From Escherichia coli (GTDB lineage: Bacteria; Pseudomonadota; Gammaproteobacteria; Enterobacterales; Enterobacteriaceae): a stretch of DNA of 41,974 bases. The stretch lies in assembly GCA_026712335.1 (NCBI GenBank), contig GCA_026712335.1_4695.1; one strand, given 5' to 3'. Position 1 is the stretch's first letter, and each line of letters starts with the position of its first letter. Position numbers and translations under genes: made by a program. Shown piece by piece: positions 1-41,974 of the stretch. Below the pieces are notes generated by a model, which searched no databases, was not told where the DNA came from, and was given only the letters and a program-made list of their open reading frames with translations.

Positions 1-1
1 C

Positions 2-271
2 GTCAATAAGAATGCTGGGTGGGCTGAGGTCTGGAAAGGCTCTGCTGGTGGTGGTGTCTCGGTAGGTCTCTCACAGGATGTTCGTTGGAGAACCATCTGG
101 ATTCAGACCAATGGTCGCTGGAACGCCGTTCCTATTGGTGGCAATGCGGCTTACTTCATCTCGTCTGATGGTGGTTGGTTGAAGTTCACAATCTCCAACA
201 ACGGCAGAACTTTCCGTAACGACAAAGACGACCGTTCAGTCCCTACGCGAATCTTAGTTCAAAACCAATAA
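2..271 (+). CDS. 17: Tail fiber protein gp17, 3' fragment (overlap copy of 41511..41780, differs at 2 codons)
   Basis: Near-identical to the end of ORF 39855..41780; C-terminus resembles the T7 gp17 tip (KGSAGGGVSV...); stop TAA 269..271. Confidence 0.8.
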   Translation, partial: VNKNAGWAEVWKGSAGGGVSVGLSQDVRWRTIWIQTNGRWNAVPIGGNAAYFISSDGGWLKFTISNNGRTFRNDKDDRSVPTRILVQNQ

Positions 272-565
272 GGACAACATATAGACCACGGATGGTCTCA
301 ACAATAAGGAGGACACAATGTTGTCTTTAGATTTTAACANTCGCTGGAACGCCGTTCCTATTGGTGACAATGCGGCTTACTTCATCTCGTCTGCTGGTGG
401 TTGGTTGAAGTTCACAATCTCCAACAACGGCAGAACTTTCCGTAACGACAAAGACGACCGTTCAGTCCCTACGCGAATCTTAGTTCAAAACCAATAAGGA
501 CAACATATAGACCACGGATGGTCTCAACAATAAGGAGGACACAATGTTGTCTTTAGATTTTAACA
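115..565. repeat. Direct duplicate 115..339 = 341..565 with single N at 340 (scaffold overlap, probable artifact)
   Basis: Read directly: the two ~225 bp copies differ only at the two tail-fiber SNP positions; N at junction. Confidence 0.9.
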
Positions 566-750
566 ACGAGGTAGTGAAGGCTGCACCGATTGTAGGGACA
601 GGCGTAGCCGATGGTGCTGCCCGTCTGTTCTTCGGCCTGTCACTCAACGAGTGGTTCTATGTAGCCGCAATTGCCTACACAGTGGCTCAAATTGGTGCCA
701 AGGTAGTCGATGTGATTATCAAATGGAAGAAGGAGGGCAAAGATGTCTAA
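544..750 (+). CDS. 17.5: Type II holin gp17.5
   Basis: 68 aa, closely matches T7 gp17.5 (MLSLDFNNE...FGLSLNEWFYVAAIAYTV...); one TM segment; RBS AGGAGG upstream. Confidence 0.93.
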   Translation: MLSLDFNNEVVKAAPIVGTGVADGAARLFFGLSLNEWFYVAAIAYTVAQIGAKVVDVIIKWKKEGKDV

Positions 751-1020: not shown

Positions 1021-1065
1021 CTCAAGGCCACTACATCTAGTGGTCTTTATGATATTTCAACACAA
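1021..1065 (+). promoter_or_regulatory. Putative RNase III processing hairpin upstream of Rz (second copy ~1227..1271)
   Basis: Hairpin of the T7 R-site type (CTCAAGG...TCTTTATGAT); position equals T7 R18.5. Confidence 0.45.
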
Positions 1066-1448
1066 CTCACGGTGACGCTACGTGAAATCTGAAAATACGG
1101 GAGGGTAGTTATGCTCAAGAATTTAAAGAGCTACGCCATAATCGCTGCGTTTGCCTTGGGTATTACCCTTGCGTATAACCACGGATATGACAAAGCTAAC
1201 ACTAAATGGGAACAGGAGGTGCACAATGAGTACGTTAAGAAANTAGTGGTCTTTATGATATTTCAACACAACTCACGGTGACGCTACGTGAAATCTGAAA
1301 ATACGGGAGGGTAGTTATGCTCAAGAATTTAAAGAGCTACGCCATAATCGCTGCGTTTGCCTTGGGTATTACCCTTGCGTATAACCACGGATATGACAAA
1401 GCTAACACTAAATGGGAACAGGAGGTGCACAATGAGTACGTTAAGAAA
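1038..1448. repeat. Direct duplicate 1038..1242 = 1244..1448 with N at 1243 (scaffold overlap)
   Basis: Read directly; duplicates the Rz start region. Confidence 0.9.
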
Positions 1449-4179: not shown

Positions 4180-4202
4180 TAATACGACTCACTATTGGGA
4201 AG
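4180..4202 (+). promoter_or_regulatory. Phage RNAP promoter (phiOR-like)
   Basis: TAATACGACTCACTATT GGGAAG; 17/17 to the internal consensus. Confidence 0.8.
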
Positions 4203-4358
4203 GGCACCCTAAGACAACTTAAAGACACTTAAAGACTGCATATGCAAAGTGCATACTTAGTGACTAACTCTTAGAGACCTTACAGTGAGGGATGATGGTA
4301 ATAGTAATTACATCCCTACTATCAGTGTAACCATCAAGTATAACAAGGAGGACGCTCT

Positions 4359-4589: not shown

Positions 4590-5060
4590 CAACTCTAAGA
4601 GTAACCCTTATGTACCCTCTATGGTCTACAGGGTCTCTTAGGGTCTCTCACGTAGTCTCACCTTATGATATAGCCTCTGTGGTTAACCTTATGAGACTTG
4701 ATGTACCCCTTTAAGAATCCTACAGAAAAATCTGAGTGAGTATCTCATAGTTCATAAACACCGAGTCCCCCCCCCTATGGCCTCCTTCAGTCCACCCAAA
4801 GAGCCTTCCTCTATGGTAACTCATGGTTTACCTGAAGTCAATCCTTTTGTGAGACATTGGGTTAACTCTAGGTGTAACCACTAGATATTGTGCTTAGTGA
4901 TACCTTATGACCACTATATGTAGTCCTCTCTGTGTCCCTATCTGTAAGTGACCCTAGAGTTATCACCTTATGTCACCTCCTTATGTCTATCCTTATGGCT
5001 GCCTATCCTTATGTTAACCTTCAGTCAGTGCCTTATGTTTATCAGTGACCAATAGGCTTC
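4590..5060. repeat. Terminal-region array of CCTTATG heptamers (at least 8 copies), analogous to the CCTAAAG array at T7 ends
   Basis: Read directly: ACCTTATGA, CACCTTATG, TCCTTATG (x3), GCCTTATG etc.; noncoding; contains a T7 left-end-like motif TCTCATAG at 4743. Confidence 0.7.
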
Positions 5061-5443
5061 GTCACAAAGGGAAATCACTATCTCACTCTGTTTAGCAGTC
5101 CCTGNCCCCCCCCCTATGGCCTCCTTCAGTCCACCCAAAGAGCCTTCCTCTATGGTAACTCATGGTTTACCTGAAGTCAATCCTTTTGTGAGACATTGGG
5201 TTAACTCTAGGTGTAACCACTAGATATGGTGCTTAGTGATACCTTATGACCACTATATGTAGTCCTCTCTGTGTCCCTATCTGTAAGTGACCCTAGAGTT
5301 ATCACCTTATGTCACCTCCTTATGTCTATCCTTATGGCTGCCTATCCTTATGTTAACCTTCAGTCAGTGCCTTATGTTTATCAGTGACCAATAGGCTTCG
5401 TCACAAAGGGAAATCACTATCTCACTCTGTTTAGCAGTCCCTG
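4767..5443. repeat. Direct duplicate 4767..5104 = 5106..5443 with N at 5105, beginning at a C9 homopolymer (scaffold overlap or doubled terminal repeat)
   Basis: Read directly; copies differ by one SNP (T at 4889 vs G at 5228). Confidence 0.85.
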
Positions 5444-5516: not shown

Positions 5517-5539
5517 TAATGCGACTCACTATTGAGGAA
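5517..5539 (+). promoter_or_regulatory. Phage RNAP promoter-like element (phiOL-like, origin-associated)
   Basis: TAATGCGACTCACTATT GAGGAA; deviates at -13 and +2. Confidence 0.6.
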
Positions 5540-5570
5540 TAGCTAATACTGGTCATCCTCTCTTTATGTC

Positions 5571-8491: not shown

Positions 8492-11354
8492 ATGACTAAC
8501 GTAATCAACGCACCAAAGAACGACTTCTCTGACATCGCTAACGCAATCATGCCATACAACATTCTGGCTGACCATTACGGCGCACAGCTTGCAGCTACGC
8601 AGTTACAGCTTGAGCACGAAGCGCACACCGAAGGCGAGAAGCGTTTTCTTAAGGCAATGGAACGTCAAATCAAAGCGGGTGAGTTCGGTGATAACGCAGT
8701 GGCTAAACCGCTCCTGTCATCTCTCGCACCGAAGTTTATCGAGGCGTGGAACGATTGGTTCACTGAAGTGGAAGCGAAGCGTGGCAAGCGTCCAGTAGCC
8801 TACAATCTGGTACAGAAGGTTGCACCTGAAGCTGCTGCATTTATCACACTGAAGGTCACACTCGCTTGCTTGACGAAAGAAGAGTTCACCAACCTGCAAT
8901 CGGTCGCCACTAAGATTGGTCGCAGTATTGAGGATGAACTGCGTTTTGGTCGCATCCGTGACGAAGAAGCGAAGCACTTTAAGAACCACGTACAGGAGGC
9001 ACTGAACAAGCGCGTTGGTATCGTCTACAAGAAAGCATTCATGCAAGCTGTAGAAGGCAAGATGCTTGATGCTGGTCAACTGCAAACCAAGTGGACCACA
9101 TGGACACCTGAAGAATCAATTCACGTTGGTGTGCGCATGTTGGAACTGCTCATTGGGTCTACTGGTCTCGTTGAGTTACACCGCCCGTTCGCTGGGAACA
9201 TCGAGAAGGATGGCGAGTACATCCAACTGACCGAACAATACGTTGACCTGTTATCTAAACGTGCTGGTGCACTGGCTGCAATCGCTCCAATGTATCAGCC
9301 TTGCGTGGTCCCACCTAAGCCTTGGACTTCTCCGGTCGGTGGTGGCTATTGGGCTGCTGGTCGCAAGCCTCTCTCTCTGGTTCGCACTGGTAGCAAGAAG
9401 GGACTTGAGCGTTACAACGATGTGTACATGCCTGAAGTTTACAAGGCCGTGAACATCGCACAGAATACTCCTTGGAAGATTAACAAGAAGGTTCTGGCAG
9501 TGGTCAACGAGATTGTGAACTGGAAGCATTGCCCGGTTGAAGATGTACCCGCTCTGGAACGTGGAGAACTCCCGGTCAAACCTGATGACATCGACACGAA
9601 CGAAGCGGCTCTGAAAGCGTGGAAGAAAGCGGCCTCCGCAATCTACCGCAAAGAGAAGGCACGAGTGTCACGCCGCATGAGCATGGAGTTCATGTTAGGT
9701 CAGGCCAATAAGTTCGCACAGTTCAAAGCTATCTGGTTCCCAATGAACATGGACTGGCGCGGTCGTGTGTATGNGAGAACTCCCGGTCAAACCTGATGAC
9801 ATCGACACGAACGAAGCGGCTCTGAAAGCGTGGAAGAAAGCGGCCTCCGCAATCTACCGCAAAGAGAAGGCACGAGTGTCACGCCGCATGAGCATGGAGT
9901 TCATGTTAGGTCAGGCCAATAAGTTCGCACAGTTCAAAGCTATCTGGTTCCCAATGAACATGGACTGGCGCGGTCGTGTGTATGCTGTGCCGATGTTTAA
10001 CCCGCAAGGCAACGACATGACCAAAGGCTTGCTGACGTTGGCTAAAGGTAAACCAATCGGTGTCGATGGGTACTACTGGCTGAAGATTCACGGTGCTAAC
10101 ACTGCTGGCGTGGACAAGGTGGACTTTGCAGAACGCATCAAGTTCATTGATGACAACCATGAGAACATCATGAGCGTTGCGGCTGACCCGATTGCTAACA
10201 CTTGGTGGGCCGAGCAAGATTCTCCGTTCTGCTTCCTCGCGTTCTGCTTCGAGTATGCAGGTGTGCAACACCACGGGATGAACTACAACTGCTCTCTTCC
10301 GCTGGCGTTCGATGGTAGCTGCTCCGGTATTCAGCACTTCTCCGCGATGCTCCGTGATGAGATTGGTGGTCGTGCGGTTAACCTGCTGCCAAGCAAAGAG
10401 GTACAAGACATCTACCGCATCGTAGCGGAACGTGTCAACGAGATTCTGAAGCAAGATGTAATAAATGGCACCGACAACGAAGTCGAAACCGTGACCAATA
10501 AGGACACAGGGGAAATCACTGAGAAGCTCAAGCTGGGCACGAAGGAACTGGCTGGTCAATGGTTAGCATACGGTGTTACTCGTAAGGAGACTAAGCGTTC
10601 CGTTATGACCTTGGCGTATGGTTCCAAAGAGTATGGCTTCCGTGACCAAGTGCTAGAGGATACAATTCAGCCAGCTATCGACGATGGCAAGGGCTTGATG
10701 TTCACTCAACCGAACCAAGCGGCTGGCTACATGGCTAAACTGATTTGGAACGCGGTAACGGTGACAGTGGTCGCTGCGGTTGAAGCAATGAACTGGCTGA
10801 AGTCTGCTGCTAAACTGCTGGCTGCTGAAGTCAAGGACAAGAAGACAAAAGAGGTTCTGCGCAAACGCTGTGCGGTACATTGGGTTACTCCTGATGGCTT
10901 CCCGGTCTGGCAGGAATACAAGAAGCCAGTACAGACACGCTTGAACCTGATGTTCTTAGGCCAGATTCGTCTACAGCCTACCGTGAACACCAACAAGGAT
11001 AGCGGAATTGATGCTCGTAAGCAGGAGTCAGGCATCGCACCTAACTTTGTCCACTCAATGGATGGTAGCCACCTGCGCATGACTGTGGTCCGCTCCAATG
11101 AGGTCTACGGTGTGGAATCGTTCGCACTGATTCACGACTCCTTTGGTACTATCCCTGCTGATGCTGGCAACCTGTTTAAAGCAGTGCGTGAAACGATGGT
11201 CAACACTTACGAAGAGAACGATGTACTTGCAGACTTCTATGAGCAATTTGCTGACCAGTTGCACGAATCACAGCTTGACAAGATGCCTGAGATGCCAGCT
11301 AAAGGTTCTCTGGACCTGCAAGAAATCCTTAAGTCAGACTTTGCGTTTGCCTAA
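8492..11354 (+). CDS. 1: Single-subunit DNA-dependent RNA polymerase gp1 (ORF split by duplication artifact 9564..9984; true length about 883 aa)
   Basis: ORFs 8492..9796 and 9765..11354 together are collinear with T7/T3 RNAP (PCVVPPKPW, WFPMNMDWRGRVYAV, ALIHDSFGT, C-terminal SDFAFA); removing one 211-bp copy restores frame. Confidence 0.97.
9564..9984. repeat. Direct duplicate 9564..9773 = 9775..9984 with N at 9774 inside the RNAP gene (scaffold overlap artifact)
   Basis: Read directly; copies identical; period 211 is not a multiple of 3. Confidence 0.92.
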
Positions 11355-18503: not shown

Positions 18504-18647
18504 GGACAATGATTGGTTGCTGACAACTCAATGTAGCTGCCCTTGGGATGCACCTTGTGTGTGTCCTGAGCGTGTACAGCATGGAGACTTACTAACTCCT
18601 GAACAGGCGTACATATACGGTCATTGGGAGCCAAAGAATAAATAAAT

Positions 18648-18670
18648 CAATACAACTCACTAATGGGACA
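18648..18670 (+). promoter_or_regulatory. Phage RNAP promoter (phi4.3-like)
   Basis: CAATACAACTCACTAAT GGGACA. Confidence 0.65.
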
Positions 18671-18713
18671 GACACTCTGTTCCCACTTATCAATCCACTT
18701 AAGGAGAATCACA

Positions 18714-19470: not shown

Positions 19471-19479
19471 GTATGAAAT

Positions 19480-19502
19480 CTATTCAACTCACTAATGGGA
19501 GA
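19480..19502 (+). promoter_or_regulatory. Weak phage RNAP promoter-like element
   Basis: CTATTCAACTCACTAAT GGGAGA; 12/17 to consensus. Confidence 0.4.
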
Positions 19503-19510
19503 ACAACACT

Positions 19511-19912
19511 ATGCGTAATCGTAATGTAATCGAAGCTGAAATCGCTAAACTGGAAGCTGAACTGGCAGACATCAAGGAATACGAATGTGCTCGTGACTCC
19601 GCTGTCCACATCCTGAAGAACTTAGGGTGGACTCGTGTTCGCGGTAAGTGGGTGCAACCAGTGAATCGTCCTGACCTGAAGGTATTCGATAAGGACACCA
19701 TGACCCACATTAAGGCTGGTGACTTCTGCACATCAACTGAGACATCCTCTCTATGGTTCGTGCGCACTGTCGCTGGCAACATCTGCTGGTGCTCACGAGT
19801 GTCCCGCATTGCTCCTAATGGAACCTTAGTGACCAGCAACAACGTTGGAATCAAAGCTGAGAACCTGAAGGTAATCAACGTGAAAGACTATATGGGATAC
19901 ACCCATCGTTAA
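19511..19912 (+). CDS. Hypothetical protein (133 aa), gp4.7 position
   Basis: ORF immediately upstream of DNA polymerase; size matches T7 gp4.7 (135 aa). Confidence 0.6.
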   Translation: MRNRNVIEAEIAKLEAELADIKEYECARDSAVHILKNLGWTRVRGKWVQPVNRPDLKVFDKDTMTHIKAGDFCTSTETSSLWFVRTVAGNICWCSRVSRIAPNGTLVTSNNVGIKAENLKVINVKDYMGYTHR

Positions 19913-24685: not shown

Positions 24686-26293
24686 ATGGCAAGCTCACAG
24701 AAACGTGAAGGCTTCGCTGAGAATGGTGCCAAGGCGGTGTATGACGCATTGAAGAACGACCGGAACTCCTATGAGACCCGTGCGGAAAACTGTGCGAAGT
24801 ACACCATCCCTTCGTTGTTCCCTAAAGACTCCGACAACGCCTCTACTGACTACACCACTCCGTGGCAAGCAGTTGGCGCTCGTGGCTTGAACAACTTGGC
24901 CTCTAAGCTCATGCTCGCTCTGTTCCCTATGCAGACGTGGATGAAGCTGACCATCTCTGAGTTCGAAGCGAAACAATTGGTTGCACAGCCAGCCGAACTA
25001 GCGAAGGTCGAAGAAGGTCTCTCAATGGTCGAGCGAATCTTGATGAACTACATCGAGTCCAACTCGTACCGTGTGACACTCTTTGAGACCCTCAAGCAGT
25101 TGGTCGTTGCAGGTAACGCTCTGCTCTACATTCCTGAACCTGAAGGTACTTACAATCCCATGAAGCTATACCGCCTGTCTTCTTATGTTGTCCAACGAGA
25201 CGCATTCGGCACGGTGCTACAGATTGTAACCTTAGATAAGACTGCCTATGCAGCACTTCCAGAAGACGTTCGAAACTCTATGGACTCCGGTCAGGAACAT
25301 AAAGGCGACGAAATGATTGATGTGTACACTCACATTTATCTTGCCGAAGAATCTGGTGAGTACCTCAAGTACGAAGAGATTGATGGTGTTGAAGTCGATG
25401 GTACAGATGCTTCTTATCCGGTGGACGCTTGTCCTTATATCCCGGTTCGCATGGTACGCATTGATGGAGAATCATATGGTCGTTCTTACTGTGAGGAATA
25501 CTTAGGTGACTTACGGTCCCTTGAGAACCTCCAAGAAGCTATCGTTAAGATGTCAATGATTAGTGCTAAAGTTATTGGCTTGGTTAACCCGGCTGGTATC
25601 ACACAGGTTCGTCGTTTGACCAAAGCACAGACTGGTGACTTCGTGTCTGGTCGTCCAGAAGACATCTCGTTCCTTCAGCTTGAAAAGGCCGCAGACTTCT
25701 CTGTAGCGAAAGCTGTGAGTGAACAGATTGAGGGCCGACTGTCCTATGCCTTTATGTTGAACTCCGCTGTGCAACGCACTGGTGAGCGTGTGACTGCCGA
25801 AGAGATTCGATATGTTGCATCTGAACTCGAAGATACCCTTGGTGGTGTCTATTCGATTCTCTCACAGGAACTTCAGTTGCCAATGGTTCGTGTCCTGCTG
25901 AAGCAACTTCAAGCGACCAATCAGATTCCTGAGCTACCGAAAGAGGCCGTTGAGCCTACTATCAGTACCGGGATGGAAGCACTGGGTCGTGGTCAAGACC
26001 TCGATAAGCTGGAACGTTGTATTGCTGCTTGGTCTGCTCTTGCTCCTATGCAGAATGACCCGGACATCAACATTGCGACCATTAAGTTGCGCATTGCGAA
26101 CGCTATCGGCATCGACACTTCCGGTATCCTTAAGACACCTGAAGAGAAACAACAGGAGATGGCTGAGGCTGCACAGGGTACGGCTATGGAGAACGCTGCT
26201 GCGTCTGCTGGTGCTGGTGCTGGTGCACTTGCCACTGCAAGCCCTGAGAACATGCAAGCGGCTGCTGAACAGGCTGGAATGGTTCCAAATTAA
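24686..26293 (+). CDS. 8: Portal (head-tail connector) protein gp8
   Basis: 535 aa; long identical stretches to T7 gp8 (IPSLFPKDSDNASTDY.TPWQAVGARGLNNLASKLMLALFPMQTWM). Confidence 0.98.
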   Translation: MASSQKREGFAENGAKAVYDALKNDRNSYETRAENCAKYTIPSLFPKDSDNASTDYTTPWQAVGARGLNNLASKLMLALFPMQTWMKLTISEFEAKQLVAQPAELAKVEEGLSMVERILMNYIESNSYRVTLFETLKQLVVAGNALLYIPEPEGTYNPMKLYRLSSYVVQRDAFGTVLQIVTLDKTAYAALPEDVRNSMDSGQEHKGDEMIDVYTHIYLAEESGEYLKYEEIDGVEVDGTDASYPVDACPYIPVRMVRIDGESYGRSYCEEYLGDLRSLENLQEAIVKMSMISAKVIGLVNPAGITQVRRLTKAQTGDFVSGRPEDISFLQLEKAADFSVAKAVSEQIEGRLSYAFMLNSAVQRTGERVTAEEIRYVASELEDTLGGVYSILSQELQLPMVRVLLKQLQATNQIPELPKEAVEPTISTGMEALGRGQDLDKLERCIAAWSALAPMQNDPDINIATIKLRIANAIGIDTSGILKTPEEKQQEMAEAAQGTAMENAAASAGAGAGALATASPENMQAAAEQAGMVPN

Positions 26294-26313
26294 TACGACT
26301 CACTAATGGGAGA
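26291..26313 (+). promoter_or_regulatory. Phage RNAP promoter (phi9-like, late)
   Basis: TAATACGACTCACTAAT GGGAGA. Confidence 0.8.
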
Positions 26314-26369
26314 GACAATACGTCCTCCCTTTGAGTTCAACTTTATGAAATCTAAAGGAGATAACAATT

Positions 26370-29339: not shown

Positions 29340-31718
29340 ATGGCTCTTATTTCACAATCCGTCAAGAACCTGAAGGGCGGTATCAGTCAACAGCCGAACA
29401 TCTTAAGGTTCCCCGAACAGGGTTCCGAACAGATTAACGGTTGGTCTTCGGAGACTGAGGGTCTTCAGAAGCGTCCACCTTTTGTCTTCACTAAGACCAT
29501 TGGAGACCAGAATGCCCTTGGTACAAAACCGCTCATCCATTTAATCAACCGAGATAGCGTAGAACAGTATTACGTTGTGTTCACAGGACAGGCAGTCCGA
29601 GTGTTCGACCTCAATGGCAAAGAGTACACAGTGAAAGGTGACTTGAGCTACGTGAAGGTAGGAAACCCTCGTGACGACCTGCGAATGGTAACGGTGGCTG
29701 ACTACACGTTTATCGTTAACCGAAACATGGTTGTGCGTGCCGATAAGACACCGCTCTATACTCTGAAAGAGAACGGAGACTGTTTGATTAACGTTCGTGG
29801 TGGACAGTATGGGAGAACACTTGCATTCACAATAAACAACGTTCGCATTGAGTACAAGATTGCACAAGGTGACAAGCCTGAACATGTACAAGAGACCGAT
29901 GCACAATGGCTCGTTAAGAAACTTGCAGGTCTTGCTCGTGCTCACGGCTCCTTCAAGGACTGGAGGTTCGACGAAGGGTCTGGCTTCATACACATAATCG
30001 CTCCGGGTAACAGTCAGATTAACCAGTTGTCCACCGAGGATGGCTATGCTAACCAGTTGATGAACGCTGTAATGCACACAAGCCAGTCATTCAGTAAGTT
30101 GCCAATCGAGGCTCCTAATGGGTACACTGTGAAGATTGTTGGTGACACCTCTAAGACTTCCGACATGTTCTATGTCCAGTATGACAACGTTAAGAAAGTC
30201 TGGAAGGAAGTCGCCGGATGGGGAGTTGAGAAGGGTCTCAATGGTGACACCATGCCACATGCTTTGGTACGCCAACCAGACGGCTCATTCACTATGCAAT
30301 CCCTTCCGTGGTCACAGCGTACCTGTGGCGACATGGACACTAACCCTACTCCGTCTATTGTTGACCAGTCGATTAACGATGTGTTCTTCTTTCGTAACCG
30401 CTTAGGGTTCCTCGCTGGTGAGAACATTGTAATGTCCCGTACATCAAAGTATTTCTCACTGTTCCCTGCGTCCGTGGCTAACCTGTCCGACGATGACCCA
30501 ATTGACGTGGCTGTGTCCCATAACCGAATCTCTATCCTGAAGTACGCTGTACCGTTCTCCGAAGAGTTGCTCCTATGGTCAGACCAAGCACAGTTCGTGT
30601 TGTCTGCTCAAGGTATCCTCTCACCGAAGTCAGTAGAGTTGAACCTCACGACAGAGTTCGATGTGTCAGACCGAGCGAGACCTTTTGGCGTTGGGCGTGG
30701 TGTGTACTTTGCGTCACCTCGTGCTTCCTATACGTCACTTAACCGTTACTATGCGGTACAGGATGTTAGCTCCGTGAAGTCTGCTGAGGATATGAGTGCT
30801 CACGTTCCAAGTTACATTCCGAACGGTGTGTTCTCCATTCGTGGCTCCGGTACTGAGAACTTTATCTCCGTGCTCTCTGCGAACGCTCCGAGTAAAATCT
30901 TCCTGTACAAATTCCTGTACCTCAACGAAGAGATTGCTCAACAGTCGTGGTCACATTGGGAACTTGGAAGTAACGTAACGGTTCTGGCTTGTGACTCTAT
31001 CGGCTCAACGATGTACCTTGTGTTGCGCAACCAGTCCCACACTTGGATGTGCCGAGCACACTTTACGAAGAACTCCATTGACTTCAACGATGAACCATAT
31101 CGGCTGTACATCGACAACAAGATAAAGTATGTGATTCCTAAAGGTGCCTACAACGATGACACTTACACTACCACTGTGAAGCCTGTAGACATCTATGGGA
31201 TGCAATATTGGACTGGTAGGTTCTACATTGTGGCCTCTGATGGTCTGGTCTCGTGGTTCGACCCTCCGCGTGGTGGTTGGCCTAATGGTGTCCCTGTGTT
31301 GTCAATGAGTGGGAACCGTGAGGATGAGACAATCTACGTTGGCTTGGCTATCAACTTCCGTTATGTGTTCTCTAAGTTCCTCATCAAGAAGACTGCTGAT
31401 GATGGCTCGACAGCTACCGAGGATATTGGGCGCTTGCAGTTACGCCGAGCGTGGGTGAACTATGAGGACTCTGGTGCATTCACTGTAGAAGTGGAGAACA
31501 CCTCTCGACTGTTCAGCTATGACATGGCGGGTGCTCGCTTGGGTTCCAATGCGTTACGCTCTGGTGGGCTTAATGTTGGTACTGGTCAGTTCCGCTTCCC
31601 GGTCGCTGGCAACGCACAGTTGAATGAAGTACGTATTATCTCTGACCATACTACGCCACTGAACGTTATTGGTTGTGGCTGGGAGGGTAACTACCTGCGT
31701 CGTTCTTCTGGTATCTAA
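29340..31718 (+). CDS. 12: Tail tubular protein B gp12
   Basis: 792 aa from ATG with RBS AAGGAGG; MALISQSVKNLKGGISQQP, C-terminus GCGWEGNYLRRSSGI as in T7 gp12. Confidence 0.97.
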   Translation: MALISQSVKNLKGGISQQPNILRFPEQGSEQINGWSSETEGLQKRPPFVFTKTIGDQNALGTKPLIHLINRDSVEQYYVVFTGQAVRVFDLNGKEYTVKGDLSYVKVGNPRDDLRMVTVADYTFIVNRNMVVRADKTPLYTLKENGDCLINVRGGQYGRTLAFTINNVRIEYKIAQGDKPEHVQETDAQWLVKKLAGLARAHGSFKDWRFDEGSGFIHIIAPGNSQINQLSTEDGYANQLMNAVMHTSQSFSKLPIEAPNGYTVKIVGDTSKTSDMFYVQYDNVKKVWKEVAGWGVEKGLNGDTMPHALVRQPDGSFTMQSLPWSQRTCGDMDTNPTPSIVDQSINDVFFFRNRLGFLAGENIVMSRTSKYFSLFPASVANLSDDDPIDVAVSHNRISILKYAVPFSEELLLWSDQAQFVLSAQGILSPKSVELNLTTEFDVSDRARPFGVGRGVYFASPRASYTSLNRYYAVQDVSSVKSAEDMSAHVPSYIPNGVFSIRGSGTENFISVLSANAPSKIFLYKFLYLNEEIAQQSWSHWELGSNVTVLACDSIGSTMYLVLRNQSHTWMCRAHFTKNSIDFNDEPYRLYIDNKIKYVIPKGAYNDDTYTTTVKPVDIYGMQYWTGRFYIVASDGLVSWFDPPRGGWPNGVPVLSMSGNREDETIYVGLAINFRYVFSKFLIKKTADDGSTATEDIGRLQLRRAWVNYEDSGAFTVEVENTSRLFSYDMAGARLGSNALRSGGLNVGTGQFRFPVAGNAQLNEVRIISDHTTPLNVIGCGWEGNYLRRSSGI

Positions 31719-38100: not shown

Positions 38101-39782
38101 GCTATTATGGCTCTTGATAAGAAGTCTGAAGGTAAAGGTACAATGAAAGGTGAAGTGGAAGCACTTAAGGATGTCGTTAAGATTGNGTGAATGACCTCCG
38201 TGACTTCGATATGAAGCATGTGATGCCAGCATATGACCGCCGTGTTGATGGTGATATTGCTATCATGGGAGGCACAGGTAAGACTACTGCTGAACTCAAG
38301 GACGCTATTATGGCTCTTGATAAGAAGTCTGAAGGTAAAGGTACAATGAAAGGTGAAGTGGAAGCACTTAAGGATGTCGTTAAGATTGTCACTGGTCGTG
38401 CTCGACGCAATCAGGATACTGTAGGTGACACTATGGTCCGTGCTCTGTCCGATATGTCCTTCTTCACGAAGAACGCATATATGGGCTTGCAGAACCTAAC
38501 CGAAATCTCCGGTATGTTGCAGAAGGGTAATATCCGTGCGATGCTTCATGGCATTCCGGTACTGCGTGACTTAGCGTTCCGCAACAAGCCAGTCTCTGGT
38601 AGTGAACTCAAAGAACTCCACTCTATGGTGTTCGGTAAAGAGTTTGATGACTTAGTCCGACCTACTCGTCAAGACATCATTCAGCGACTCCGTGAGTCCA
38701 CTGATACACCTGATGTTGCCGCAAAGGTTGTTGGTTCTATCAAGCACACAACTCAAGAACTGGCGGCTCGCTCACCTCTCACCAAGTTCCTCAATGGTAC
38801 GTCAAACTACCTTCTGGACATGGCCCGACAGGGTGTGATGGGTGATGTGGTAACTCATGCTATCACTGGAAAGGGTGCCAACAAGTGGATTAAAGGTGAC
38901 ATGTTGAAGTCTGCGAGTATCTCTAAGGAACAGTGGGAAGGCATTCAGGCTCTCATCCGTGAGAACGTTACCCGTGGGGAAGATGGTAAGTTTACCTTCA
39001 AGGATAAGAAGGCTCTGGCTAATGACCCTCGTGCTATGGACTTGTGGCGTTTGGCTGACAAGGTTGCTGATGAAACGATGCTTCGACCTCATAAGGTTTC
39101 CTTACAGGATTCCCATGCGTTTGGTGCCACCGCTAAGTTAGTCCTTCAGTTTAAGTCGTTTGTCATCAAGTCGATGAACTCTAAGTTTATCCGCTCCGGT
39201 CACGAAGCCTTTAAGAACCAGCGTGCTATGGACATGGCGCTGACCTATGCAATCTCTGGTGGTATCGCTGGCTCCTACTATGTGGCACAGGCCCACTTGA
39301 AGGCTGCTGGTCTTCCTAAAGAGCAACAGAAGGATTACTTGAAGAAAGCTCTCGACCCGAAGATGATTGCCTACGCTGCGGCCTCCCGAAGTTCACACTT
39401 AGGGTCGCCTCTGAGTATCGCTAACTTCGCTATGGGTGCTGCTGGTTACGACCAAGGTCTTATGGTTCGCTCTACGATTCTACCGAAAGGTGATGACAAG
39501 CGTGAGCGCAACAAGGCGGTGACTTCTCGTGACATGGGTGATTCCATTATGGGCGCTATTGGTGAACAGGTTCCTGCTCTTGGCTTCGCTGGTGCTGCTC
39601 TAGCTACTGGTCGAAATGCTTATGGTGTCCTTACGGCTCCTAACAAACCGACCGAGCGTGAGATGATGACTGGCTTAATGAATGCTCACCGAGAGATGAT
39701 TCCTAACGATCCAATCTCTCAACAGATGCTCATTAAGTTCTATGAGGCCAACGGTGTTCACATTAAGGCTGACAAGAAGTAA
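35134..39782 (+). CDS. 16: Internal virion protein D gp16 with N-terminal lytic transglycosylase domain (ORF split by duplication artifact 37984..38388; about 1481 aa after de-duplication; GTG start)
   Basis: ORFs 35134..38190 and 38187..39782 together are collinear with T7 gp16; SLT motifs ESRF...MQFTKAT...AYNQGEG; C-terminus YEANGV; removing one 203-bp copy restores frame. Confidence 0.95.
37984..38388. repeat. Direct duplicate 37984..38185 = 38187..38388 with N at 38186 inside gp16 (scaffold overlap artifact)
   Basis: Read directly; copies identical; period 203 is not a multiple of 3. Confidence 0.92.
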
Positions 39783-39854: not shown

Positions 39855-41780
39855 ATGGCTAACAAAATTTCCACTGTACGTACTTACCCGCTGAACGGTG
39901 CCGTGAACTTCACGATTACCTTTGAGTATTTAGCACGTAAGTTCGTCCAAGTGACACTCATCGGGAAAGACCGTAAAGAGTTGGTTCTCAATCAGGACTA
40001 TCGCTTTACCACTAAGACCCAAATCACAACCTCCCGTGCGTGGACTGCTGCCGATGGTTATCAGATGATTGAGATTCGTCGATTCACTTCTGCAACCGAC
40101 CGTCTGGTTGACTTTGCTGATGGCTCAATCCTTCGTGCGTATGACCTTAACATCTCACAGATTCAGACGCTGCACGTAGCTGAAGAGGCACGAGACCTAA
40201 CTGCGGATACCATTGGTGTCAACAATGATGGTCACTTGGATGCCCGTGGTCGTAAGATTGTGAACCTAGCGTTCGCTACCAGTGACTACGATGCTGTCCC
40301 TCTGAAGCAAGTAAAAGAGCGCGAGTCGTCTGCTTGGAACGCTGTTAACAAGGCCAATGAACACGCTAACCGCTCTAACACTGAGGCTAACCGATCGCGA
40401 GATGAAGCTGACCGTGCAAAACGTGAAGCTGACCGCTCAACCCAACAGGCAGGTGTCTCTACGGCACAGGCGGTTGAGTCCAAGAAGCAAGCTGACCGTT
40501 CCAACTCTGAGGCTAACCGAGCTAAAGGTTATGCTGATAGTATGACCGCAAGTGTAGCTGAGGCCAAGAAGCAAGCTGACCGTTCTAACTCTGAGGCCAA
40601 TCGTGCCCGTGATGAGGCCAATCGTGCTGCCGGAGAAGTGACTAAGGCTGCTGCTGAGGTTGCCAAAGCCGCTGCACACGTTGCTACCGCTGATGGACAT
40701 GCTGACAGAGCCAACACTGAGGCAAACCGCTCCAAGAGTGAAGCTGACCGTGCAAAGACCGAGGCTGACAAGTTAGGGAATATGAATAACTTAGCGGGAA
40801 CCATTAAAGCGGTTAATGGTGAGAACGTTGTTTTTAAGAATGATGTTGTAGCACCCGGACAGATTACTGGTGAAAAGGAAGTAAGGGCTGGCGCAGGTCA
40901 ATCGTTTAGCGTGTTAACAAGGAACTCGTTGCAGCTTGTGAACCAGAACTTCGCTGATAGAAATATGAGGTTCTTCGTATGGGGGAATGACCAAGGACGT
41001 GCAAACGTATTTGAGTTAGGTGGTAGCGGTAATGGGTACTATATGTATATCCAGAAGGCTAACCTTAACGACACATTTTGCCAGATGCGAGTGAATGGAC
41101 ATATGGAGGCTGCTGGTGGGCTTACGGTTGGACAATCAGGTGACTTCACTGGAATCTTACAGACTCGCTCACAGAACCTGCTGATGATTAACTCTGCTCG
41201 TCGACATATTCAAATGAAAACCAGCGATAACTACACCGATGGTTATCTTTACAAAGACCCCGGCGCTGGGGCGTGGAGGCTTAACTTTGGTCAGGCAGCT
41301 AACAGGGAGTATACGTTTGATTCAAATGGTACATTAACATCCAACTCAGGCTGGTACATTCCACCAGATGGTAACTTATACATCACGAAGTATGATTCTT
41401 ACATCGACGGTTGGGTCAACAAACGCCTTGGAGAACATGCCTACAATAAAAGCGAAGTAAACAACCTAGTCAATGGACGGTTAACTCAAGCGCAAGCTGA
41501 TGGTCGATACGTCAATAAGAATGCTGGGTGGGCTGAGGTCTGGAAAGGCTCTGCTGGTGGTGGTGTCTCGGTAGGTCTCTCACAGGATGTTCGTTGGAGA
41601 ACCATCTGGATTCAGACCAATGGTCGCTGGAACGCCGTTCCTATTGGTGACAATGCGGCTTACTTCATCTCGTCTGCTGGTGGTTGGTTGAAGTTCACAA
41701 TCTCCAACAACGGCAGAACTTTCCGTAACGACAAAGACGACCGTTCAGTCCCTACGCGAATCTTAGTTCAAAACCAATAA
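39855..41780 (+). CDS. 17: Tail fiber protein gp17 (641 aa, with expanded central repeat region)
   Basis: N-terminal domain FEYLARKFV.VTLIG.DRK...DGSILRAYDLN..QIQT.HVAEEARDLT.DTIGVNNDGHLDARGR.IVNLA and C-terminal tip match T7 gp17. Confidence 0.96.
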   Translation: MANKISTVRTYPLNGAVNFTITFEYLARKFVQVTLIGKDRKELVLNQDYRFTTKTQITTSRAWTAADGYQMIEIRRFTSATDRLVDFADGSILRAYDLNISQIQTLHVAEEARDLTADTIGVNNDGHLDARGRKIVNLAFATSDYDAVPLKQVKERESSAWNAVNKANEHANRSNTEANRSRDEADRAKREADRSTQQAGVSTAQAVESKKQADRSNSEANRAKGYADSMTASVAEAKKQADRSNSEANRARDEANRAAGEVTKAAAEVAKAAAHVATADGHADRANTEANRSKSEADRAKTEADKLGNMNNLAGTIKAVNGENVVFKNDVVAPGQITGEKEVRAGAGQSFSVLTRNSLQLVNQNFADRNMRFFVWGNDQGRANVFELGGSGNGYYMYIQKANLNDTFCQMRVNGHMEAAGGLTVGQSGDFTGILQTRSQNLLMINSARRHIQMKTSDNYTDGYLYKDPGAGAWRLNFGQAANREYTFDSNGTLTSNSGWYIPPDGNLYITKYDSYIDGWVNKRLGEHAYNKSEVNNLVNGRLTQAQADGRYVNKNAGWAEVWKGSAGGGVSVGLSQDVRWRTIWIQTNGRWNAVPIGDNAAYFISSAGGWLKFTISNNGRTFRNDKDDRSVPTRILVQNQ

Positions 41781-41826
41781 GGACAACATATAGACCACGG
41801 ATGGTCTCAACAATAAGGAGGACACA

Positions 41827-41974
41827 ATGTTGTCTTTAGATTTTAACAACGAGGTAGTGAAGGCTGCACCGATTGTAGGGACAGGCGTAGCCGATGGTGC
41901 TGCCCGTCTGTTCTTCGGCCTGTCACTCAACGAGTGGTTCTATGTAGCCGCAATTGCCTACACAGTGGCTCAAA
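41827..41974 (+). CDS. 17.5: Holin gp17.5, 5' fragment (wrap-around copy of 544..691)
   Basis: Identical to the start of ORF 544..750; window ends inside the gene. Confidence 0.85.
   Translation, partial: MLSLDFNNEVVKAAPIVGTGVADGAARLFFGLSLNEWFYVAAIAYTVAQ

Follow-up and report, generated by a model that had tools for sequence, protein, structure and literature searches.

In phage T7, Asp-520 of the tail-fibre protein gp17 is one of the five tip positions at which selection is starkly host-dependent, and the loop that carries it "is oriented downward toward the receptor" (PMC8043750). The normalised functional scores of D520A were 1.62 on E. coli 10G, 0.15 on BL21, and 0.61 on BW25113, and G480R was enriched on 10G with a score of 6.3 (PMC8043750). 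D520A, G521R, and N501H were the three variants obtained from plaques on a urinary tract infection (UTI) strain, and with these variants insensitivity set in after 11-13 h instead of 1-2 h (PMC8043750). The same paper cites D520Q as a substitution that switches specificity (Heineman 2008). Continuous evolution of T7 on lipopolysaccharide (LPS) mutants gave D520E, G521R/S, G479R, and G480E/V, all on the LPS-recognition surface (PMC6962156, Holtzman et al. 2020), and an experiment on the coevolution of T7 and E. coli yielded many mutations in gp17, gp12, and gp11 (PMC9797572). That is, host-range substitutions in the gp17 tip and mixed fibre-tip populations are already well documented, and what we describe here is a new instance in the genus Berlinvirus. 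The DNA in question is a stretch of 41,974 nucleotides (nt), hereafter the window, from an assembly labelled Escherichia coli at NCBI (GCA_026712335.1, contig GCA_026712335.1_4695.1). The window is the genome of a lytic T7-like phage of about 40.1 kb (Berlinvirus; Autographiviridae, Studiervirinae), and the element under study is the 3' end of its tail-fibre gene 17.

This 3' end is written three times in the window, and the genome has a single copy of it. The features concerned are as follows.

39855..41780, plus strand: tail-fibre gene 17, encoding 641 amino acids (aa) (P0003, MCY4705013.1); the single real copy, with the majority haplotype Asp599, Ala608, Gly609.
1..339, plus strand: scaffold piece 1, running from the 3' end of gene 17 through the intergenic region into the holin gene, of which it has the first 22 nt; minority haplotype, redundant.
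340, no strand: N junction of pieces 1 and 2, not a genomic base; the sequence restarts at the equivalent of position 115.
341..691, plus strand: start of piece 2, which repeats the last part of piece 7 without change; 367 and 394 have the majority alleles.
41510..41848, plus strand: stretch of piece 7 that is duplicated by piece 1; majority alleles A at 41650 and C at 41677.
141 (against 367 and 41650), plus strand: candidate single-nucleotide polymorphism (SNP) 1, gp17 residue 599, equivalent to T7 P511, interior EF loop.
168 (against 394 and 41677), plus strand: candidate SNP 2, gp17 residue 608, equivalent to T7 D520, exterior FG loop.

When 1..339 was compared base by base with 41510..41848, only two mismatches were found, 141 G/41650 A and 168 A/41677 C. 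The same two differences (367 A and 394 C) separate 115..339 from 341..565, which are otherwise equal, and 341..691 agrees with 41624..41974 over 351 nt with 0 mismatches. The codons of piece 1 are GGC at 141 and GAT at 168, and those of the other two copies are GAC and GCT, giving Gly/Asp and Asp/Ala, respectively. The translation of piece 1 contains AVPIGGNAAYFISSDGGW and that of the other two copies AVPIGDNAAYFISSAGGW; the in-frame reading over both sites is PIGGNAAYFISSDGGW in piece 1 and PIGDNAAYFISSAGGW in the others. A 48-nt pattern allowing up to 3 mismatches had exactly three matches in the window, with 0 expected by chance. The partial protein MCY4704972.1 (P0002) is the exact translation of piece 1 and is recorded on a contig of 41,974 nt, that is, on the window itself. 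The preliminary description of this DNA had given the same bases and the same amino acid changes, and our direct comparison agrees with it to the letter. We consider it quite probable, judging from the sequence, that piece 1 is the minority-haplotype arm of an assembly graph, and that both mismatches are genuine polymorphisms of a mixed population of T7-like phage whose tip variants were under selection.

The triple writing follows the structure of the record. The window is a circular scaffold of seven pieces that are joined by single Ns with their overlaps left unmerged. After each of the six Ns (340, 1243, 5105, 6041, 9774, and 38186) the sequence restarts 202-338 nt upstream, with overlaps of 225, 205, 338, 226, 210, and 202 nt, and the end of the window, 41624..41974, wraps onto 341..691 and closes the circle. 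A repeat search showed that the long direct repeats of the window are all of the type 'X N X', with a spacing equal to their length plus 1. The whole of piece 1 is contained in piece 7, which itself shares a direct overlap of 351 nt with piece 2. After removal of the redundancy, the genome has about 40,097 bp; that is, the record is about 1.9 kb too long. In Enterobacter phage PZJ0206, which is single-copy and colinear here, window positions 1-339, 341-1242, and 1244-1800 correspond to intervals of one locus that overlap each other. The identity to PZJ0206 is 96.4% over 24 kb and that to phage 285P is 95.3%; a related-locus search in IMG/VR returned four phages only, all of them already known.

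The identity of the gene is clear. Residues 1-154 of the protein match the Pfam family PF03906 (Phage_T7_tail) with E = 7.6e-50 and 169 bits against a cut-off of 25.2, and the order of genes 16, 17, holin 17.5, and 18 (terminase small subunit) is the same as in the annotated PZJ0206 locus. The tip aligns with residues 452-553 of T7 gp17 (PDB 4A0T/4A0U; phmmer E = 4e-25, 53% identity over the tip). In this alignment, query residues 126-226 are paired with chain residues 127-228, and the lone one-residue gap is upstream of both sites. The hydrophobic-core residues listed for T7 by Huss et al. 2021 (PMC8043750) are identical in 11 of 11 cases (W474, I495, W496, I497, Y515, W523, L524, F526, I528, F535, and I548). 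In the per-residue source data of the same study, residues 509-512 are labelled 'Interior Loop EF' and residues 518-522 'Exterior Loop FG'. Taken together, the alignment and the published loop labels indicate that the 168 site alone faces the receptor and that the 141 site faces the shaft. Thus, the earlier placing of both sites in the receptor-binding tip holds for 168, which sits at an exterior-loop position known to switch T7 specificity, and does not hold in that sense for 141.

The polarity of the two differences was then determined by aligning T7 with 20 related tips. GAT/Asp, the allele of piece 1, stands at the 168 site in the five closest of them (PZJ0206, SYGE1, JeanTinguely, Sekstaphage-1, and SEqdws-315), and T7 also has Asp there; Ala at 608 was found only in the majority haplotype. 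At the 141 site, Asp, the majority allele, occurs in 19 of the 20 Berlinvirus-type relatives, and Gly is private to piece 1 in that alignment. These states lead us to infer that the ancestor probably had Asp599, Asp608, and Gly609, and that each haplotype is one step away from it. That is, the differences at 141 and 168 would reflect two haplotypes with one derived change each, and not a double mutant. The majority haplotype would have gained D608A, the equivalent of T7 D520A in the receptor-facing FG loop, and the piece 1 haplotype D599G, in the EF loop that faces the shaft, at the position equivalent to T7 P511.

A third haplotype was found by a protein search with a 143-aa tip query. The match is an 80-aa partial protein labelled E. 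coli (P0001, MCY4705133.1), encoded on a 283-nt contig, which equals the window tip except that it reads PIGDN...SSDRGW, with Asp, Asp, and Arg, the last at the equivalent of T7 G521 (G609R). This protein and that of piece 1 belong to the same cluster, and since their accessions, MCY4705133.1 and MCY4704972.1, are 161 apart, we take them to come from the same assembly. The sample of the window would then hold the equivalents of T7 D520A (in the majority) and G521R (in the 283-nt contig) together. A protein homologue search with a 226-aa query at E <= 1e-10 gave no matches, and degenerate DNA patterns for all four allele combinations had no matches in viral, metagenome (two scans), or genome contig collections. 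Exact look-ups with gp17, with the fragment of piece 1, and with P0001 likewise retrieved no contig. Minority variants are predicted at 41487 (gp17 Q545K) and 41679 (G609R), which are known from the proteins on the 281- and 283-nt contigs of the same assembly.

The sizes and ends of the small contigs were compared with a simulated de Bruijn graph (k = 141) built from the observed haplotypes. The k-mers specific to SSDRGW span 283 nt (the equivalent of 28 to 310), in agreement with the 283-nt contig and with both terminal residues of its protein, and those specific to Q545K span 281 nt (2k-1), which matches the size of the other contig and the ends of its 93-aa protein (P0008). The k-mers specific to piece 1 begin at window base 1; this base is the first of the first 141-mer that contains 141 G, that is, 140 nt before SNP 1. 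It follows that the record begins where it does because of the polymorphism at 141. In addition, a protein on a 321-nt contig of the window's assembly (P0006) and another on a 1,689-nt contig of LI077 (P0007) both stop at ...NAVPIG, right before codon 599, as expected of a graph that branches at a polymorphic site. Taken by itself, k = 141 accounts for no more than the point where piece 1 starts and the contigs of 281 and 283 nt, and we rejected it as the sole source of the junction overlaps and of the length of piece 1 (339 nt).

This T7-like phage, which is strictly lytic, also occurs in at least five sibling assemblies; the proteins of the window's own assembly run from MCY4704972 to MCY4705156. 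The 90% cluster of gp17 has nine members, all labelled E. coli and of one accession series, which come from the locus tags LI077, LI079, LI080, LI081, and LI086 and from the window's own assembly. This suggests that phage-infected or phage-challenged cultures were sequenced as bacterial genomes. The gp17 alleles are as follows.

LI086 (P0004): G480R, Asp to Gly at the P511 equivalent, S518A, K539Q, and D541V, in T7-equivalent numbers.
LI081: K539Q, D540A, and D541Y, in T7-equivalent numbers.
LI079: S477Y, S518A, and D541V in T7-equivalent numbers, and A117V in its own numbering.
281-nt contig of the window's assembly (P0008): Q545K, in its own numbering.
281-nt contig of LI080: N309Y, in its own numbering.

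Carry-over between samples is one alternative. Under this explanation, index hopping or bench contamination among sibling libraries brought the minority haplotypes into the assembly, and the haplotypes did not coexist in one culture. In at least five siblings (LI077, LI079, LI080, LI081, and LI086) the same phage is found with gp17 alleles that differ, and LI086 is fixed for Gly599. However, Gly599 of piece 1 is linked within single 141-mers to the wild-type residues at the equivalents of 480, 518, 539, and 541, and LI086 is mutant at all four; piece 1 is therefore not a carry-over from LI086. Moreover, neither the piece 1 haplotype nor the SSDRGW haplotype matches the consensus of any listed sibling. 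Judging from the siblings that were sampled, we regard carry-over as unlikely.

The distribution of the variation bears on the question of whether the polymorphism has any function. The sibling alleles vary at 12 positions of gp17, of which 9 belong to the 89-aa tip (Fisher p = 2e-6). Of these 9, 8 map either to an exterior loop (BC or FG) or to the stretch 539-541, which adjoins the HI loop (hypergeometric p = 6e-5). Far less variation was seen in other proteins. The exact sequences of the window's terminase, DNA polymerase, scaffolding protein, Rz, and exonuclease are each found on at least 6 contigs, those of the portal protein, ligase, and kinase each on at least 5, and that of the single-stranded DNA-binding protein (SSB) on at least 7; within this set, among the matches listed, a variant was seen for the exonuclease only (LI079). 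Among the same matches, gp12 (29340-31718) shows three single changes (Y to C, M to L, and Q to R), and the other sibling substitutions are S to L in gp15, E to K and G to V in the capsid protein, and R to H and N to D in gp19.x. Such a focus of variation on the tip is what selection on receptor recognition would produce.

A real but neutral polymorphism, that is, drift in a large lytic population without any effect on host range, can be judged from these data. In its favour, P511G was neutral in the deep mutational scan of T7. Against it are the concentration of the sibling changes in the tip and at its receptor-proximal positions, and the near-constancy, among the matches listed, of the replication and packaging proteins, where the LI079 exonuclease is the exception. 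Furthermore, three of the changes in these samples, D520A, G521R, and G480R (the last in LI086), match host-dependent substitutions of T7. Neutrality is thus a very unlikely account.

We next consider an error of sequencing or consensus. Here, piece 1 would be a low-coverage contig, possibly from one read pair, and the population would be homogeneous. The piece is only 339 nt long and fully redundant, and another overlap also has a lone mismatch (4889/5228). With 2 mismatches in 339 nt, against 1 in the 1,532 nt of the other overlaps, the rate shows no significant rise (Fisher p = 0.086). In the coding stretch, 77% of random substitutions are nonsynonymous, so that the finding of two nonsynonymous changes is uninformative (its probability by chance is about 0.4-0.6), and two random sites lie 27 nt or less apart in 15% of cases. 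The preliminary description had argued from precisely these two features, nonsynonymy and adjacency, that an error was the less likely cause, and this argument is statistically weak.

Its conclusion, that a mixed population is likelier than a consensus error at a contig end, is nevertheless upheld on other grounds, because the signal resides in the identity of the changed bases and not in the number of mismatches. One of two random errors in 339 nt would have to recreate exactly the ancestral GAT at the most variable position of the tip, and the chance of this is about 0.002. Gly599 is also the consensus of LI086, an independent library, and so is not a random error, and two contigs break exactly before codon 599. 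A third haplotype is present in the same assembly, and the geometry of the arms fits branches of a k = 141 graph. An assembler, moreover, usually retains a branch only if its k-mers have been seen repeatedly, which counts against a single faulty read pair. Taken comprehensively, we think an error extremely unlikely.

Finally, a true biological repeat, with two or three fibre-tip copies arising by duplication or as the template and variable repeats of a diversity-generating system, has in its favour the three near-identical copies in the record, yet it is virtually impossible, since the copies stand only at the N junction and the wrap-around, the long direct repeats are all of the 'X N X' type, the relatives are single-copy, the junction yields a nonsense chimeric open reading frame (ORF), and the window has no further copy that could serve as a template. 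A diversity-generating retroelement, whose changes would be confined to adenines, was rejected for this lack of a further copy in the window and because G609R starts from GGT, which has no adenine on the coding strand. Judging from colinearity with T7-like phages, a reverse transcriptase is not expected (this rests on synteny only; no scan with reverse-transcriptase hidden Markov models was run). To our knowledge, ordinary T7-like phages have no reverse transcriptase.

We return to the reading of the two mismatches as polymorphisms in a mixed, selected population, and to the interior-loop change D599G. In T7, the interior loops hold a salt-bridge network of D489, R491, R493, R508, and D512, which is thought to fix the orientation of the tip on the shaft (PMC8043750). 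The present phage keeps the equivalents of D489, R491, and R493, and has Pro at 508 and Asn at 512. With Asn at 512, the Asp at the 511 equivalent is the sole acidic residue of the 511/512 pair. At least one Asp is found at this pair in 21 of 21 aligned sequences, and only piece 1 and LI086 have none. D599G occurs alone in piece 1 and together with four other changes in LI086, and a contig breaks at its codon in LI077; from these three contexts, we think that D599G is real and widespread in the series. It may be adaptive, compensatory, or a hitch-hiker.

The mechanism by which such variants could come to coexist may be pictured as follows. The trimeric gp17 tip would bind the LPS core, and removal or addition of a charge in the FG loop might alter the set of LPS forms that are recognised. 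Variation of the host LPS, or resistance arising in culture, could then select alternative single-step tip variants, which would coexist. The Gly change in the interior loop might alter the orientation or the stability of the tip, or might be carried along as a hitch-hiker.

Several points weigh against this reading. The haplotypes are known at the level of assembled contigs and proteins, and the variants of the siblings and of the 281-, 283-, and 321-nt contigs at the level of proteins, so that their counts cover amino acid changes. Piece 1 is 31 nt longer than a simple k = 141 arm (339 against 308), and the junction overlaps of 202-338 nt exceed k and fit no identifiable assembler. The effect of the variants on the host range of this phage is predicted by analogy. 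As for an adaptive role of D599G, both P511G and P511D were merely tolerated in the deep mutational scan of T7 (PMC8043750).

A wider interpretation may be offered tentatively, as a possibility that we hold to be less likely than its opposite. That is, at least six deposits labelled E. coli may document an infection by one lytic Berlinvirus that persists in a carrier state or coevolves, in which the tip solves LPS recognition anew at the T7 positions (the equivalents of 480, 518, 520, 521, and 539-541), and the recurrent D599G may be an adaptive, non-contact change of host range that acts through the seating of the tip on the shaft. If the reading of the mismatches as polymorphisms in a selected population is right, the deep-mutational-scanning map of T7 would extend to another genus, since identical loop positions and even identical substitutions (D520A, G521R, and G480R) arose there without engineering, and this would support the use of the T7 map for predicting and engineering host range across the subfamily. 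It would also mean that genome deposits labelled as bacteria can hide evolving populations of lytic phages.

The remaining features of the record that concern the junctions are as follows.

318..497, plus strand: artefactual chimeric ORF in which the start of the holin is fused to the fibre tip; its translation, MLSLDFNXRWNAVPIGD..., spans N340.
544..750, plus strand: intact copy of the class II holin gene 17.5, assigned by synteny with PZJ0206; partial copies start at 318 and 41827.
1038..1448, plus strand: unmerged overlap at N1243, in which 205 nt of the Rz gene are written twice with 0 mismatches; PZJ0206 is single-copy there.
4767..5443, plus strand: unmerged overlap at N5105, in which 338 nt of the non-coding terminal-repeat region are written twice, with the mismatch 4889 T against 5228 G.

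The exact sequence of the holin protein (P0012) is common to BA14, Kvp1, 285P, and FE44. Other false genes made by the N joins are a duplicated Rz start (1111..1281), an RNA polymerase split at 9774, and a gp16 split at 38186. Users of the record should therefore be warned that its N-joined overlaps create duplicated, split, and chimeric genes.

The difference between 4889 T (piece 3) and 5228 G (piece 4) is the sole other mismatch among the overlapping pieces. It is non-coding, PZJ0206, D226, and ETEP21B have G at this site, and it may be another polymorphism or an error. We rejected the idea that the terminal repeat and the 338-nt overlap at N5105 are one and the same, because the right terminal repeat of Kvp1 maps to window positions 4744-4938 and covers only part of the overlap. 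A run of nine C at 4767-4775 stands exactly at the start of piece 4, inside the homolog of the terminal repeat, and is likely a trouble spot for assembly or sequencing.

Some further observations were made. The segment 40351-40769 contains degenerate direct repeats that are 61-77 nt long and whose starts are 21 to 210 nt apart; they encode heptad-like repeats of the EANRS/EADRA type in the gp17 shaft, and the megablast matches to relatives break there. Sequences that resemble promoters of the T7-type phage RNA polymerase (TAATACGACTCACTAT...; AATACAACTCACTAATGGGA...) were found at 4181-4203, 5517-5540, 18644-18705, 19476-19537, and 26287-26348, and one of them immediately precedes the region of the terminal repeat. 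The gp17 gene of LI079 is broken into ORFs of 476 and 180 aa, and in the same assembly the ends of gp11, the capsid protein, and gp6 are frameshifted or truncated (P0009, P0011, P0136, P0065, and P0196). These broken genes could reflect defective genomes or poor assembly.

Lastly, we compare the present case with the known systems. The 'bubble' contigs that de Bruijn assemblers produce from mixed populations resemble what is seen here in their single-SNP mini-contigs of 2k-1 = 281 nt and in their breaks at polymorphic sites, and unmerged de Bruijn overlaps resemble it in the single-N joins with duplicated flanks. In contrast to such contigs, the window has junction overlaps (202-338 nt) that exceed k, and its piece 1 surpasses the simple arm by 31 nt.

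The likeness to the tip variants of T7 gp17 is closer. The domain and the FG-loop positions are homologous, and the changes are the same, D to A at the 520 equivalent and G to R at the 521 equivalent. D520A and G521R of T7 were isolated together from one selection; those variants came from an engineered library, whereas the present ones were seen as haplotypes of a deposited E. coli assembly. In addition, this phage belongs to another genus (Berlinvirus), and its loop context is SSDGGW in place of ASDGGW in T7. The host effects are predicted from the T7 analogues. In the coevolution of T7 and E. coli (Shaer Tamar and Kishony 2022, PMC9797572), many independent nonsynonymous changes arose in the tail fibre, together with a few in gp12 and other genes. 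The phage of that study was T7 itself, which rules it out as the source of the window; the same pattern is found across the sibling assemblies described here.

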